Source: Candidatus Woesearchaeota archaeon | GTDB taxonomy: Archaea > Nanobdellota > Nanobdellia > SCGC-AAA011-G17 > PNOQ01 | Reading direction: 5' to 3' | DNA length: 64,000 nt | Assembly (NCBI GenBank): GCA_964603065.1 | Contig: CAZRTL010000005.1 | Coordinates: 4,700-68,699 of the forward strand | Part shown: piece by piece, positions 1,805 through 35,841 of the stretch | Layout: the number at the start of each line of letters is the position of its first letter | Position numbering within the stretch: the stretch's first letter is position 1 | Notes under the pieces: generated by a model | What the model was told of the DNA's origin: nothing | What the model saw: only the letters and a program-made list of their open reading frames with translations | Database searches by the model: none | Translations under genes and position numbers: made by a program

Positions 1805-2962
1805 TTATAAAACTTTTTGTTTAGCTCTAGAAATCTTCTTCAATCTATTATATTTAACAACTCTTTCCTTACCATAAATGCCACTCTTCAAAAAATCTGC
1901 CCCAAACATATAACTCAAATCTGCCAAAAAATCTTCTCTAGTCTCTCCAGATCTATGTGAAAATATAGTTTTAATCCTATTTAATTTACAATATTCAACA
2001 ACTTTCTTGACTTCAATCAAAGAACCAATCTGATTGGGTTTAATAATCACCCCATCAACTTTTGCTTTCTTTACTCTTTCTAAACTAGTAACTGTCAAAT
2101 CATCTCCCACTATCAAACAATCACTAACTTTTTTTCTTAATTCTGAAAATCCGGAAAAGTCTTCTTCATCTAATGGATCTTCTAAATAACCAATCTTATA
2201 CTTCTTAACTAAATGTACCAAAAATTCAATTTGTTCACTTTTACTTAATTTAACTTCTCTCTTGCTCTTAGAATAATTTTTATAATGATATTTTCCATTC
2301 TTAAAAAAACTAGAAGCAGCTACATCAATTCCTATTCTAATCCTATATCCTAACTTATAAGATAACTGATCAACGGCCTTGTTCAAAACTTCTAAAACTT
2401 CTAAATTACTCAAGTTAGTAACCCATGCACCCTCATCATTTTTTCTTTTAGATTTCAAAAGTTTTCCCAAATACAAATGTAGGGCCCTATTTACTTTAAC
2501 TCTATTAATAAAATCTCTACAATTTTCTACATAAACTAAAAATTCTTGAAAATCAGGTATTTTTTTACCTTTAGTATGTAAACCTCCGCCAATAACATTT
2601 CCCAAAGGAATTGGCAAAGCTCTATATCCAAAATTAAATTTTTTATAGGGCTTCTTAAAGTTCTTCAAAATTGCATACTCCAAAGCAATATTTGGATTTG
2701 AACCGAAATCAAAAACATCTTCAACTCTTTTCAAATCATCATATTTCTCTATTTTCATTTCTTCTAGTTTATCAAAAGAATTTATTTTATTCACAACAGA
2801 GTTAACACTCCCTACAAAATATTTTTTTTCATGCTTACCTTTACTCTTTCCAGCAGGAGCCGAAGCTCTAGACTTCCCAATATTAGATTTAACAGAAATT
2901 TCTATAGTATCTTCATTTCTAGAATTTTTTATTTTTCTAGCTTTAACCCCTTTTATAATCAT
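1805..2962 (-). CDS. eno: enolase
   Basis: SHRSGETED active-site signature and C-terminal KYNRLxxI; 385 aa. Confidence 0.88.
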   Translation of the reverse strand: MIIKGVKARKIKNSRNEDTIEISVKSNIGKSRASAPAGKSKGKHEKKYFVGSVNSVVNKINSFDKLEEMKIEKYDDLKRVEDVFDFGSNPNIALEYAILKNFKKPYKKFNFGYRALPIPLGNVIGGGLHTKGKKIPDFQEFLVYVENCRDFINRVKVNRALHLYLGKLLKSKRKNDEGAWVTNLSNLEVLEVLNKAVDQLSYKLGYRIRIGIDVAASSFFKNGKYHYKNYSKSKREVKLSKSEQIEFLVHLVKKYKIGYLEDPLDEEDFSGFSELRKKVSDCLIVGDDLTVTSLERVKKAKVDGVIIKPNQIGSLIEVKKVVEYCKLNRIKTIFSHRSGETREDFLADLSYMFGADFLKSGIYGKERVVKYNRLKKISRAKQKVL

Positions 2963-30014: not shown

Positions 30015-30923
30015 ATGTGTAATAGATGTAAAACAAAACCTGTAATAAAGCTTCCAAATAGTAATATCTCTCTCTGCAAATCATGCTTCATAAAATACTT
30101 TGAAAGAAAAGTTAGAAAAACAATAAGACAATACAAACTATTCAAAAAAGGTCAACACATCGGAGTAGCCTTATCTGGAGGAAAAGATTCTCTTACAACT
30201 TTGTACATATTAAACAAAATAACAAAACCTCAGAAAATAACAAAAATAACTGCAATCGCAATAGATGAAGGGATAAAAGGATATCGAGACGAAACTCTGA
30301 AGTTTGCAAAAAAAGTTTGTAAAGAGTTAGACATCCCACTAAAAACAACATCATATAAAAAAGAATTCGGAAAAACTCTAGATCAAATACTTAAGAAAAA
30401 CAAAATAAAGCCTTGTACAGTATGTGGAGTTTTCAGAAGATTTTTACTAAATAAACACGCTCAGAAATTAAAATTTGATATTATTGCTACTGGGCATAAT
30501 TTAGATGATGAGGCCCAATCTGTTCTAATGAACCAATTTAGAAATAATATAACTGCCTCAGCTCGTTTAGGCCCAATAACTGGAATAAAATCTGATAAAA
30601 AATTCATAAGAAGAATAAAACCTCTTTATTTTCTAACTGAAAAAGAGATTATGACTTACGCATATCTAAAAAACCTAGCAACTCCTTTCAATGAATGTCC
30701 ATACTCAAAAAATTCATATAGGGGAGAAATAAGAAACCTAATTAACAATTTTGATAAAAAATATCCCTCATCAAAACATTCAGTAATAAATTCATTTATG
30801 GAAATACTACCCTTATTAAAAGAAAATTATAAAAGTGGAGAATTAAAATATTGTAAATCTTGCGGAGAACCTTCTTCAAAAGAAATTTGCCAAACTTGTA
30901 ACTTAATAAGGGAAATTGTATAA
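30015..30923 (+). CDS. tRNA 2-thiolation PP-loop ATPase (TtuA/NcsA/Ncs6 family)
   Basis: N-terminal CxxC...CxxC zinc finger, SGGKDS PP-loop, C-terminal CKSCGEP...CQTC zinc finger. Confidence 0.8.
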   Translation: MCNRCKTKPVIKLPNSNISLCKSCFIKYFERKVRKTIRQYKLFKKGQHIGVALSGGKDSLTTLYILNKITKPQKITKITAIAIDEGIKGYRDETLKFAKKVCKELDIPLKTTSYKKEFGKTLDQILKKNKIKPCTVCGVFRRFLLNKHAQKLKFDIIATGHNLDDEAQSVLMNQFRNNITASARLGPITGIKSDKKFIRRIKPLYFLTEKEIMTYAYLKNLATPFNECPYSKNSYRGEIRNLINNFDKKYPSSKHSVINSFMEILPLLKENYKSGELKYCKSCGEPSSKEICQTCNLIREIV

Positions 30924-31214
30924 ATGGAAGTAGCACAAATATTAGGATGGATTGCAACTTTTTTATTTTCTATAATGATTATTCCACAAATGATTAAGAC
31001 AGTTAAATCAAAAGACACAAATGGTGTTAGTTTACTCCTATTCATAATATTTTTAGTCGCCAACATAATAGCCCTAACTTATGCCATTTTGATCTCACAA
31101 TCACCTTTAATAATAAAATATGGTATTGCTATTATAACAACTGTTATATACATCATATTATTTTTATTCTACTTTACAAAAAACAAGAAAAAAATCAGAT
31201 TTTACTCTCCATAA
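30924..31214 (+). CDS. 3-TM PQ-loop (SemiSWEET/MtN3-like) membrane protein
   Basis: IPQMIKTVKSKDTNGVS PQ motif; 96 aa with 3 TM; TAAATG junction with the upstream gene. Confidence 0.5.
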   Translation: MEVAQILGWIATFLFSIMIIPQMIKTVKSKDTNGVSLLLFIIFLVANIIALTYAILISQSPLIIKYGIAIITTVIYIILFLFYFTKNKKKIRFYSP

Positions 31215-31259
31215 TATTACGGAAAATTATTTATACTGAAAACAAACATAACTAAGAAA

Positions 31260-31457
31260 ATGAAAATAACAATAATAGATGAAAAAAACGATGTAAAAAA
31301 ACAATTAGAAATTTCTTCAATTAAAGAAGCAGCAGAAAAACTAAACATTAATTTAGAAGAGGTAATCATAACAAGAAACAATGAATTAGTAACTGAAGAT
31401 TCAAAACTAAAAGACAAAGATGAGTTAAAATTTCTATCCGTTATTTCTGGCGGATAA
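31260..31457 (+). CDS. ubiquitin-like sulfur carrier (MoaD/ThiS/SAMP/TtuB family) ending in Gly-Gly
   Basis: 65 aa with beta-grasp-like pattern; C-terminus ...VISGG. Confidence 0.65.
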   Translation: MKITIIDEKNDVKKQLEISSIKEAAEKLNINLEEVIITRNNELVTEDSKLKDKDELKFLSVISGG

Positions 31458-31494: not shown

Positions 31495-32109
31495 ATGAGT
31501 TTAAAACAAATTTTAGTAGGAACTGGAATTATGCTTTGTTCAATTTTACCTACTTTAAGTTTTGCTCAAGAAACAATACCAAGAATATATCATGGTTTAG
31601 GGGCATATGCTAGCACAAATTCAGAGGTTACACAAGGAAACATGTCCCTAGGTTTTTGTTATTCTCCTACAGAATTGTATGGCATTAAACCTTGGGTAAA
31701 TATAGGAGTCAAAACAGAGTCAAGATTTCCTGGAAAGGCAAATACAATGATAGAAATAGGTGGAGCCCTAGAGAGAGACTTAGGAATATATGATTTAAAA
31801 TTGGGGCTGGGCGGATCATGGTCAAGTTCAGGTTCATCCAAATATGTAGCAGGACAAGAAGCAGGAGAAAGCGCAGGAATCTTAACAGAAACAGAATTAA
31901 AAGAATTAAACACATACATAGTTAAATCTTTTACAAAAGAAGAAAAAAAGAAAAAGGGTATAAAAGAATCCCACATAGATTTATATGCAGGTTTTGCCCA
32001 AAAATGGGGAGAATTCAAAACTGAATCTACGGAGGGCATAGAAAACCCAAATAAACCTTTCAAATTCAAAGACCCAGTTTTCAAGGCAGGAGTAAGAGTT
32101 TCCTTCTAA
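31495..32109 (+). CDS. secreted hypothetical protein
   Basis: Signal peptide. Confidence 0.4.
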   Translation: MSLKQILVGTGIMLCSILPTLSFAQETIPRIYHGLGAYASTNSEVTQGNMSLGFCYSPTELYGIKPWVNIGVKTESRFPGKANTMIEIGGALERDLGIYDLKLGLGGSWSSSGSSKYVAGQEAGESAGILTETELKELNTYIVKSFTKEEKKKKGIKESHIDLYAGFAQKWGEFKTESTEGIENPNKPFKFKDPVFKAGVRVSF

Positions 32110-32116
32110 ACTCAAC

Positions 32117-32233
32117 TTAACTAATTTCTAACAAACCTACGTTTCTGTTATCAATAAACTCTCCTTCTTCAAAATAATCCAAATCAAAGAACTTTGAAAC
32201 GTAAATTCGATTATATCCTCTTTTAAATTTCAT
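32117..32233 (-). CDS. unannotated mini-protein (38 aa), overlapping the upstream one by 11 nt (ATGAAATTTAA)
   Basis: Open frame with a coupled start inside the stop region of the upstream mini-ORF. Confidence 0.25.
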   Translation of the reverse strand: MKFKRGYNRIYVSKFFDLDYFEEGEFIDNRNVGLLEIS

Positions 32234-32330
32234 AATCTATCACCTCATCAATTAGCTCATGATATTTTTCCCAGTGTTGAATCCTCAACTCCTTAAATCT
32301 AAGGTCTAAAACAGTGTCAAGTTTATCCAT
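32223..32330 (-). CDS. unannotated mini-protein (35 aa, MDKLDTVLDLRFKELRIQHWEKYHELIDEVIDYEI)
   Basis: ATG preceded by GGAGGTGAT (9-nt spacer) and TTTATAAAT about 45 nt upstream. Confidence 0.35.
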   Translation of the reverse strand: MDKLDTVLDLRFKELRIQHWEKYHELIDEVIDYEI

Positions 32331-32370
32331 ACTATATCACCTCCTCAATTATACTAATTTTTTAGATTTT

Positions 32371-32380
32371 ATTTATAAAT
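32371..32380 (-). promoter_or_regulatory. TATA box (TTTATAAAT) for the mini-ORF pair
   Basis: Archaeal TATA consensus about 45 nt upstream of ATG 32330. Confidence 0.35.
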
Positions 32381-32461
32381 GCCTTATTAAACAGAAATCA
32401 GAGTTAACATACAGAAAAAAAATCCATAAACCTTAAAAATAGACCCGCATTTACCAAATCA

Positions 32462-33124
32462 ATGGTATCATTGGGATTCGCACCAGTTTGGTTTTCTTAT
32501 CAAAGTATAATCTTCGAATTAGTTTTTGCTATAATAACTTTGCTAGTGGCGTTTGCATCATTCAGAATATACCACCTATCAAAAGAAAAATCTGCGGCGT
32601 GGTTTGGATCAGGATTCTTATTATTCTCAATTTCATATTTTATACAATTAATGTTAAACATTGGAATTAAGTACAGGTTAAGTGAAAATATACAAATAAT
32701 AAGCGAAGCAAGAGAAATTATAAATCTTGGTTTAACAGCATTAAATCTTCATATGATTTTAATGATTACTGGATTAGTTATACTAACTCACATCAATTTA
32801 AAAGAAAAAAGTTTTAGAAACTTCCTATTATTATTAGCAGTTACGCTAACCCCGATCTATTTTAGTCATCACCCAATATTTCTATTTTTCACAATATCTT
32901 CAATATTATTAGGATTCATAACGTTAAGCTACTTATTTAATTATTTAGAAAAAAAGAGATTTAATACATATTTAGTATTTTCAGCATTTTTACTTTTATT
33001 CTTAAGTAATATCCATTTTATATTTTCAATACAAAACACTATATTTTATGTAATCGCTCATTTCTTTGAGTTATTTTCATACTTACTAATATTAATAAAT
33101 TTAACGATGTGTTTAAAAAGATGA
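32462..33124 (+). CDS. polytopic membrane protein, hypothetical
   Basis: 6-7 TM segments. Confidence 0.4.
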   Translation: MVSLGFAPVWFSYQSIIFELVFAIITLLVAFASFRIYHLSKEKSAAWFGSGFLLFSISYFIQLMLNIGIKYRLSENIQIISEAREIINLGLTALNLHMILMITGLVILTHINLKEKSFRNFLLLLAVTLTPIYFSHHPIFLFFTISSILLGFITLSYLFNYLEKKRFNTYLVFSAFLLLFLSNIHFIFSIQNTIFYVIAHFFELFSYLLILINLTMCLKR

Positions 33125-33396
33125 GCAAAAAAAGAGACAGACTTCGAGTCATCTTTGATATACTTGATGTCATAAGGGAAAAAGGAGAGACGATTAAACC
33201 TACCCATATATTGTATAAATCTAATCTATCTCATCAAATGATGCAGCAATATCTAAACGAATTAATTGGTAAAGGTTTCTTAATAGAAAAAGTAGCTGAA
33301 AAAGGAAAAACTTATTCTCTAACTGAAAAAGGTTTTAACTATTTAAAAGAGTATAATAAAATAACAACATTCGTAGAATCTTTTGGGTTGGGTTAG
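33109..33396 (+). CDS. small winged-helix DNA-binding protein
   Basis: About 95 aa; basic N-terminus and a wHTH-like pattern. Confidence 0.35.
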   Translation: MFKKMSKKRDRLRVIFDILDVIREKGETIKPTHILYKSNLSHQMMQQYLNELIGKGFLIEKVAEKGKTYSLTEKGFNYLKEYNKITTFVESFGLG

Positions 33397-35091: not shown

Positions 35092-35841
35092 TTATTTTTT
35101 TCCACACCTATCTTCAAACTTCTTTCCAGCTAAATAATCATATTCACCATTGCACGTTTTACAATTTTTCTTCTTATCAACTTTAATTTTATCGAAATTA
35201 TTCTTATCCAATCTAACATAAACTAAATCTTCTTCTGATTTCTTACCAATTAATAACTTCAAGGCCTCATTGACCTGTAAACTTGAAACTAGCGAGCTAA
35301 TACCATTCAATACTCCAAGAGTTTCACAAGAATCAATACTTTTCAAACCTGAAAAAATACAACCATAACAAGCTTTCTTGGGAGAATAAACATAAACATA
35401 ACCTTTATTTTGAATAGCAGAAGCAAATACACAATTTATTTTGTTTTTAACACAAAAATCATTAAGTAAAAATCTCGTTTGCATATTATCTGTGCAATCT
35501 AAAACTAAATCAACTTTATTTATTTTCTTAATATTCTCCGAACTCAAACTTTCATTATATTCTTTAATAGAAACTTTTGGATTAACTTCCTTTAAATATT
35601 TCTTAGCAACTTTAACTTTTGATTCATGAATATCACTAAATTTAAACAAATGCTGCCTCTGTAAATTAGAAGATTCAATAAAATCATGATCAAATAATAT
35701 TAGTTTTTTAACTCCACTTCTAACTAACAATTCACTTGTCAAACTACCCAAGGCCCCAACTCCAATTACAGCTACTTTTGACTTTTCTAACTTTTTTTGG
35801 GCTTTCTTTCCAATAACTAACTCTTGTCTTGAATAATCCAT
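35092..35841 (-). CDS. E1-like ThiF/MoeB/UbaA activating enzyme
   Basis: VAVIGVGALGS nucleotide-binding loop; CYGC and CKTC zinc-site cysteines. Confidence 0.8.
   Translation of the reverse strand: MDYSRQELVIGKKAQKKLEKSKVAVIGVGALGSLTSELLVRSGVKKLILFDHDFIESSNLQRQHLFKFSDIHESKVKVAKKYLKEVNPKVSIKEYNESLSSENIKKINKVDLVLDCTDNMQTRFLLNDFCVKNKINCVFASAIQNKGYVYVYSPKKACYGCIFSGLKSIDSCETLGVLNGISSLVSSLQVNEALKLLIGKKSEEDLVYVRLDKNNFDKIKVDKKKNCKTCNGEYDYLAGKKFEDRCGKK

Follow-up and report, generated by a model that had tools for sequence, protein, structure and literature searches.

We analyzed a 64,000-nucleotide stretch of DNA from an uncultured Candidatus Woesearchaeota archaeon of the DPANN group (contig CAZRTL010000005.1; hereafter the window), in which two overlapping open reading frames (ORFs) of 35 and 38 amino acids (aa), ORF A and ORF B, lie on the minus strand, divergent from a two-gene operon encoding a seven-transmembrane (7-TM) protein and a winged helix-turn-helix (wHTH) protein. 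Based on comparison with related genomes, we conclude that both ORFs code for protein and are held under purifying selection, that they carry dedicated translation signals and are coupled, and that the pair keeps a fixed association with the 7TM/wHTH operon. We consider it fairly probable that A and B are two real micro-protein genes, translated in a coupled fashion, whose products act as modulators of the 7TM/wHTH module. As far as our searches reach, the two families are undescribed, and it is by inference that we assign them a function.

An initial annotation of this DNA had described a TATA box, a Shine-Dalgarno (SD) sequence, ORF A and, in the +1 frame, ORF B on the minus strand, and we found all four where it had placed them (Table 1). 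It had put the SD 9 nucleotides (nt) upstream of the start codon, which is correct if one counts from the GGAGG core, whereas the full GGAGGTGAT ends 5 nt before the ATG. A second SD, ahead of ORF B, comes in addition to the signals described there. The two ORFs overlap by 11 nt (ATGAAATTTAA), and because each ATG is the earliest possible start after an in-frame stop, both starts are unambiguous.

GGAGGUGAU is complementary to the 3′ terminus of 16S rRNA, which is conserved in archaea (the 16S gene itself lies outside the window). On both strands of the 64 kb, GAGGTGAT occurs only twice, each time 5 nt before the start of ORF A or ORF B, a placement expected by chance with a probability of ~1.5e-4, and the 9-mer GGAGGTGAT is present as a single copy. 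Among 70 long ORFs of the window, an SD match of at least 5 nt precedes only ~16% and is never longer than 7 nt, and the majority of window genes have no SD; the two SDs of the pair are the strongest in the window. Taken alone, the lengths of the ORFs are within chance, and it is the ribosome-binding sites that differ in this: an open frame of 35-38 codons arises with P ~0.06-0.075 per frame in window DNA of 31% G+C, and the window contains 221 ATG-initiated ORFs of at least 30 aa. The TATA sequence TTTATAAAT is not enriched in the window either (12 observed vs. 8.2 expected). Since the usual archaeal spacing between TATA box and transcription start is ~26 nt, the A/B transcript would start near 32349 and have a leader of ~19 nt. 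The pair is present as a single copy in the window.

Table 1. Positions of the A/B pair, its predicted expression signals and the divergent operon within the window.
Feature	Position	Strand	Remarks
TATA box TTTATAAAT	32379-32371	minus	A/B transcript; by sequence
Conserved TTTAATAA element	32384-32391	minus	directly 5′ of the TATA box; putative B recognition element (BRE)-like or second A/T element of the A/B promoter
Shine-Dalgarno 1, GGAGGTGAT	32344-32336	minus	perfect 9 nt; 5 nt ahead of the ORF A ATG (32330)
ORF A, MDKLDTVLDLRFKELRIQHWEKYHELIDEVIDYEI	32330-32223	minus	35 aa
Shine-Dalgarno 2, GAGGTGAT	32246-32239	minus	within the 3′ end of ORF A (codes E-V-I); 5 nt ahead of the ORF B ATG
ORF B, MKFKRGYNRIYVSKFFDLDYFEEGEFIDNRNVGLLEIS	32233-32117	minus	38 aa; +1 frame relative to ORF A
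Divergent operon promoter TCCATAAACCTTAAAAAT	32423-32440	plus	TATA-like part centered ~26 nt before the 7-TM ATG
7-TM membrane protein	32462-33124	plus	220 aa; AlphaFold2 predicted local distance difference test (pLDDT) 88, seven-helix bundle
Sso10a/HTH_45 winged-helix protein	33121-33396	plus	91 aa; 4-nt ATGA overlap with the 7-TM gene

The pair had been thought unannotated, which is true of an ORF track with a 60-aa cut-off, but not of the JGI, ENA, Logan and NCBI assemblies, in which both ORFs are called as hypothetical proteins. The window is archaeal and encodes, among others, TtuA, a ThiS-like protein and an Sso10a/HTH_45 protein. It matches the 262-kb JGI contig Ga0115649_1000033, and related contigs carry the labels Woesearchaeota, Nanoarchaeia or Pacearchaeota. 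Eleven contigs with the exact A and B proteins are 100% identical to the window across the region; an assembly error is thus excluded by 11 independent assemblies, and the same identity means that they hold no evolutionary information. A fused A+B query in a word-indexed protein search gave no candidate, phmmer with ORF A against 1.84 billion cluster representatives returned its own cluster only, and scans with A/B peptide patterns found one short contig in metagenomes and no match in viral contigs. A genome scan with the 220-aa 7-TM neighbor as a single sequence likewise gave no match.

Because peptide searches reach only very close relatives, we collected relatives through synteny. The identity of homologs of the 220-aa neighbor declines gradually from 84% to 25%, and the contigs of these homologs carry small ORFs at the same divergent position. 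Ranked by the identity of each locus's 220-aa neighbor to the window protein, both ORFs are present at 84% (L013, where the contig end cuts B), 76% (L015, with ATA instead of ATG as the start of A), 61% (a 172-kb JGI contig, with gene calls of 35 and 37 aa), 60% (L021, GTG start in B), 55% (L022, TTG start in A) and 37% (L024). At 73% (L017), A is intact and B is shortened to 20 aa (2723-2785, minus strand) beside an inserted Yip1 gene, and at 72% (L019), A is again intact and B has 26 aa with an internal deletion (2705-2785, minus strand).

ORF A of the window differs from that of L013 by 13 synonymous and 3 non-synonymous changes, the latter conservative. For the closer pairs, Nei-Gojobori ratios of non-synonymous to synonymous substitution (dN/dS) lie in the range 0.03-0.3 in A and 0.09-0.4 in B; dS is ~1 or higher and saturated. 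We therefore conclude from these low ratios that both frames are under purifying selection as protein. The initial annotation had proposed a real small-protein module with an archaeal promoter and strong ribosome-binding sites, to be checked by the conservation of the reading frames in related genomes; with both frames kept in relatives at low dN/dS, the proposal is supported. Furthermore, a profile of A and B built from eight sequences and run against 5.8 billion proteins returned only proteins of 33-43 aa, so A and B represent genuine micro-protein families and not fragments or domains of larger proteins.

The arrangement of the two genes is conserved as well. In the 12 species loci that carry both, A and B overlap by 11, 4, 0 or -1 nt, and the frame of B is offset relative to A by +1, +2 or 0. 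In 11 of the 12, B is preceded by an SD-like stretch with 4-9 matching nt (L031 has none), and eight close loci keep both ribosome-binding sites together with the coupling of the genes. Because the SD and the juxtaposition of stop and start are conserved, we regard A and B as translationally coupled, and the pattern indicates that initiation at the two genes is independent and coupled.

To establish how widely the pair occurs, we relied on its neighbors. A scan of GTDB genomes with an HTH_45 alignment gave 365 species-level loci, of which the best 80 were fetched; 77 had enough upstream DNA to count A and B, which were located by iterated hidden Markov models (HMMs) of each. An A-like ORF is present in 19 of these 77 species loci, a B-like ORF in 18, both in 12 and at least one in 25. 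The iterated HMMs match only at the divergent position upstream of the 7-TM gene, and across 88 loci of ~6 kb each, all significant A/B matches lie at this one position. The conserved core is KE.R(I/V)..WE.YH..(P) in ORF A and M(K/R)Y...GYNRL.VGDLY in ORF B, for which a shorter form is (G)YNR.(Y/L)V..L(F/Y). In L024, the far flank is unrelated, with PFK and aldolase genes and not ThiS/TtuA, and the pair still stands beside the 7TM/wHTH operon.

The intergenic region of ~130 bp is conserved to the same degree as coding DNA. Its A/B side reads TTTAATAA-N4-(C/A)TTTATAA, with the SD ~35-40 nt further on. Among eight aligned pair-bearing loci, TTTAATAA is invariant in seven and missing from the most distant (L024); it is also found in L023, where the small ORF differs. 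A TATA-like core occupies the same spot in all eight, as TTTATAA in seven and as TATATAA in L024, and TTATTAA occurs on the opposite strand in 20 of 78 loci. The promoter of the divergent operon is conserved in all close relatives, and a relaxed motif, NCAYAA-N2-3-TTWAAAA, is present in 51 of the 78. Because TCCATAAACCTTAAAAAT lies ~26 nt before the ATG, the mRNA of the 7-TM gene is probably leaderless. A search for inverted repeats in the intergenic region found none beyond A/T-rich pairs of low complexity.

The wHTH protein matches Pfam HTH_45 (E=1.6e-19) and the NCBIfam model Sso10a_fam (65.1 bits vs. a cut-off of 60), and its identity across loci (52-93%) is far above that of the membrane protein (30-84%). 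In 77 of the 80 species loci, the wHTH gene is immediately preceded by the 7-TM gene; for two of the remaining three, the upstream DNA is missing. A Foldseek search with the 7-TM model gave only generic matches to rhodopsin/G-protein-coupled-receptor-like 7TM proteins (E ≥0.03), and 7-TM homologs have weak, sub-threshold matches to MASE3, 7TMR-DISM and DUF7521. The operon is shared by Woesearchaeota, Pacearchaeota and Nanoarchaeia, with at least 365 species-level genomes that carry it, and appears to be uncharacterized. Several genome records with this module bear the title “uncultured Methanosarcinales archaeon” or “Alphaproteobacteria bacterium” (L035, L041, L048, L052, L059, L062 and others); these are probably mislabeled or contaminated bins.

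The product of ORF A is acidic (pI 4.6, net charge -5), has no proline or glycine, and carries hydrophobic residues at intervals of 3-4 positions along its whole length, as would suit one amphipathic helix. B is hydrophilic and nearly neutral, with a grand average of hydropathy (GRAVY) of -0.47 and a maximum 19-residue hydropathy of -0.03; modeled alone by AlphaFold2 with six homologs, it has a pLDDT of 49 and no confident fold. Neither A nor B has a hydrophobic stretch suited to a signal peptide or membrane helix, and their maximum Kyte-Doolittle 11-residue windows are 0.27 and 0.35, respectively, compared with 2.1 for the neighboring secreted protein. A comparison of A with the neighboring wHTH protein gave no match. 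Another idea, that B is a relic of the recognition helix and wing of this protein, was rejected: hhalign does align B to the region that the idea predicts, but the match is not significant (P=0.07, probability 0.8%). In the literature on HTH_45, DUF7521, and small proteins in DPANN/Woesearchaeota, we found no description of the A or B families.

We propose that A and B are transcribed as one short, SD-led mRNA from the archaeal TATA promoter, and that ribosomes ending A meet the strong SD within its last codons and initiate B. We infer from the sequence that the pair is expressed, and its products would be two hydrophilic cytoplasmic micro-proteins. Translational coupling usually accompanies stoichiometric partners, and because the coupling is conserved, the likeliest form in which A and B act is a 1:1 complex. 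The pair would be one lineage-specific occupant of a small-ORF slot that is divergent from the Woesearchaeota/Nanoarchaeia 7TM/wHTH operon. The sensor-like 7-TM protein may set the activity of the wHTH protein, which may in turn control the A/B promoter; the micro-proteins would then serve as output or feedback modulators, binding one of the module's two proteins.

Several points weigh against this proposal. The functional link of A and B to the module is drawn solely from conserved adjacency and the shared control region. Approximately two-thirds of the 7TM/wHTH loci lack A and B, and have other small ORFs or none instead, so the operon does not need them. Some loci appear to have only A or only B, and an obligate heterodimer is therefore not certain. 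B has only 20 aa in L017, and an internal deletion leaves it with 25-26 aa in L019, L026 and L027, with A full-length in each case, and both L015 and L016 carry ATA at the homolog of window 32330-32328, with the frame, the SD and ORF B intact. The ATA may serve as a non-canonical start, or the gene may be at an early stage of being lost. Finally, searches of Pfam, NCBIfam, PADLOC and PDB sequences gave no match for A, B or their diverged relatives, and no structure or homolog points to a biochemical activity.

The slot, taken here as up to 300 nt ahead of the 7-TM gene on the opposite strand, has other occupants elsewhere. In L052, L057, L059, L092, L098 and L100, it holds an acidic ORF of ~43-46 aa that ends in ..(E/D)AAFL(E/N)GY, one member of which has a weak SHOCT-like Pfam match (E=0.013), and the slot of L025 holds a SHOCT-like ORF of 43 aa. 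In L056, L064, L067, L070 and L079, the ORF is basic, has 25-35 aa, ends in ..G.KPPP and is often preceded by an SD of its own, and similar ..KPPP-type ORFs are found in L069, L073, L082, L086, L089 and L101. The C-terminal polyproline of the ..G.KPPP ORFs suggests that they may be ribosome-arrest or aIF5A-dependent leader peptides. A ..WRGNSQL.ELKGG.. family occupies the slot in L023 (2127-2332, minus strand), L075 and L076, with a hemerythrin gene next on the same strand in L023 and L075.

The pair had first been noticed as lying in a gap between a secreted-protein gene and a membrane-protein gene. Its link to the membrane-protein gene, and to the wHTH gene behind that, stands, whereas the secreted-protein flank varies among relatives. 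The secreted protein of the window is encoded by a convergent gene (31495-32109, plus strand); it has 204 aa, a signal peptide and no family match, and in close relatives it is replaced or joined by others, such as a Yip1-domain protein. Its gene is a variable flank and lies outside the module. TtuA, a PQ-loop protein and a ThiS-like protein (likely TtuB) are encoded at 30015-31457 (plus strand) and 35092-35841 (minus strand), with a ThiF-like E1 gene nearby. These genes make up a tRNA 2-thiolation/ubiquitin-like sulfur-carrier neighborhood that flanks the pair only in the window's own clade, and not in L024.

The conserved position also bears on a first alternative, namely that A and B are abundant stand-alone micro-proteins unrelated to their neighbors, for example small subunits or chaperone-like partners, and that the adjacency is that of an inherited bidirectional promoter region. 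We think this doubtful. Their ribosome-binding sites, the strongest in the window, do suggest high expression, and the operon manages without A/B at some two-thirds of its loci. Yet the pair in L024 is still divergent from the 7TM/wHTH operon where the surroundings have otherwise changed, and the 88 loci yielded no significant A/B match anywhere but at that position.

It is unlikely, too, that A and/or B, together with the other families of the slot, are exported signaling peptides, released, sensed by the 7-TM protein and transduced via the wHTH protein. A small ORF does lie divergent from a receptor-like 7TM protein and a regulator in many species, and the small-ORF family changes by lineage as receptor and regulator are conserved, much as in pherotype diversification; the 7TM fold also resembles receptors, albeit generically. 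On the other hand, A and B have neither a signal peptide nor a hydrophobic segment, no processing or export gene is conserved beside the pair, and both proteins are hydrophilic, A being acidic and B neutral. The variable slot would in that case be a “peptide cassette” which, with the 7-TM and wHTH proteins, forms an undescribed peptide-based sensing or signaling system of DPANN archaea. We hold this broader idea to be just as unlikely; if true, such a system could possibly serve communication between cells, or between symbiont and host.

The initial annotation had also suggested either a regulatory peptide, a role that A/B may have, or a mini toxin-antitoxin module, in which the acidic A would be the antitoxin and B the toxin. 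Two co-transcribed overlapping genes with the acidic protein first would suit such a module, and the decay of B in some lineages, with A persisting, is the order of loss that is tolerated for a toxin gene. Nevertheless, the toxin-antitoxin suggestion is not supported and we regard it as very unlikely. No toxin, antitoxin or defense model was matched, and searches with B and its relatives gave no toxin-fold match at E values up to 1-10 (Pfam, NCBIfam, PADLOC, PDB sequences). At 35 and 38 aa, the proteins are much smaller than the domains of type II families, no hydrophobic segment is present, and B is neither hydrophobic, unlike type I toxins, nor basic. In addition, the pair is single-copy in the window, occupies one fixed position in each locus that has it, with no sign of mobility or mobile-element context, and is absent from viral contigs, and a relative with ATA for the ATG of A retains an intact B.

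We find it highly improbable that the ORFs are regulatory upstream ORFs or leader peptides, of which the act of translation matters and not the product. They are short and have strong SDs, the basic ..KPPP peptide in the same slot of other lineages resembles a ribosome-arrest leader, and a further gene in the same direction follows in L024 and L023. In the window, however, the next gene (31495-32109) is convergent, which leaves nothing downstream to regulate, and the amino acid sequences of both ORFs are under purifying selection.

There is scarcely any case for one gene of ~72 codons that is split by a sequencing error or read via a programmed frameshift: the ORFs do overlap and the overlap is A/T-rich, but the 11 independent assemblies agree fully here, the reading frame of B shifts relative to that of A by lineage, each B has its own SD and start codon, and the profile search yielded no protein of ~70 aa. 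A programmed frameshift was rejected because the frame offset changes among lineages and because the AAATTTA heptamer lies outside the A frame. That A and B are chance ORFs over a non-coding element, be it a promoter region or a small RNA, has a negligible chance of being right, since substitutions are frame-specific and mostly synonymous, even though frames of such length are common in A/T-rich DNA and a search of 701 nt gave a weak Rfam match to the C/D-box RNA snoR160 (32177-32257, minus strand; 28.7 bits vs. a gathering score of 42, E=0.023). This sub-threshold match lies over the A/B junction and is caused by the C-box-like TGATGA in the SD region, which reads GAAGAG in L017 and GAGGAG in L019; there is no CUGA D box, and a C/D-box RNA was rejected.

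We return to coupled micro-protein genes that would modulate the 7TM/wHTH module. Proteins of <50 aa are routinely dropped from annotation, and hardly any are known from DPANN archaea, a group with reduced genomes and many unexplained genes. The present analysis defines two micro-protein families and ties them to an uncharacterized 7TM/wHTH operon found in at least 365 species-level genomes. The four-gene module and its ~130-bp conserved control region make a concrete, testable unit, and the differing small-ORF families in one slot may indicate a general regulatory or signaling design in episymbiotic archaea.

Among known systems, type II toxin-antitoxin operons (RelBE, VapBC, HicAB) share with A/B the layout of two small, co-transcribed, overlapping genes with the acidic product first. 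Their toxins belong to recognized folds or families (RelE/ParE, MazF, PIN, HicA, Doc and others), and their antitoxins combine a DNA-binding domain (RHH, HTH, AbrB, Phd/YefM) with a tail that binds the toxin. In A and B, by contrast, no toxin or antitoxin fold was detected, A lacks a DNA-binding domain, and both proteins reach only a third to a half of the size of the smallest partners known. Type II operons are also patchy in distribution, mobile and often multi-copy, whereas A/B is single-copy in the window, fixed in position and shows no mobility. The toxins of type I systems are small, hydrophobic, membrane-active peptides, and B is not hydrophobic.

Another parallel is found in the peptide-regulator cassettes of Firmicutes (Rgg/SHP, PlcR/PapR and other RRNPP systems; agrBDCA), which likewise have a small ORF beside, and often divergent from, a regulator or receptor, and in which, as in the slot described here, peptides diversify but receptor and regulator do not. 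The likeness is an analogy only: A and B are hydrophilic and without signal or export features, and the host is an archaeon. Moreover, the regulator here is a 91-aa Sso10a-like winged-helix protein and not a tetratricopeptide repeat (TPR) protein, and the candidate receptor is a stand-alone 7-TM protein without a kinase domain.

The nearest item in the literature is a pair from Haloferax volcanii, in which HVO_B0192 and HVO_B0193 encode a transmembrane protein and a DUF7521 regulator that are strongly up-regulated in a quorum-sensing mutant (bioRxiv 10.1101/2025.11.10.687552). The pair resembles the 7TM/wHTH operon in joining a membrane-protein gene to that of a small transcriptional regulator. 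However, the DUF7521 matches of distant homologs of the 220-aa neighbor reach at most 25 bits against a Pfam threshold of 27, any homology of the two modules is putative, and no A/B-like genes are reported for the Haloferax pair (bioRxiv 10.1101/2025.11.10.687552).

Archaeal micro-proteins of <70 aa that are missed by length cut-offs and are thought to bind larger proteins have been described in Methanosarcina mazei and H. volcanii (PMC11456600, PMC10117724). With the characterized examples, we found no sequence relationship; A and B also lack any cysteine or zinc-finger motif and, as distinct from those examples, form a coupled pair tied to one conserved neighboring operon. A and B conform to the general class of translationally coupled protein-coding gene pairs, as they display frame-specific purifying selection, a ribosome-binding site for B inside A, and a stop and start that overlap or abut.

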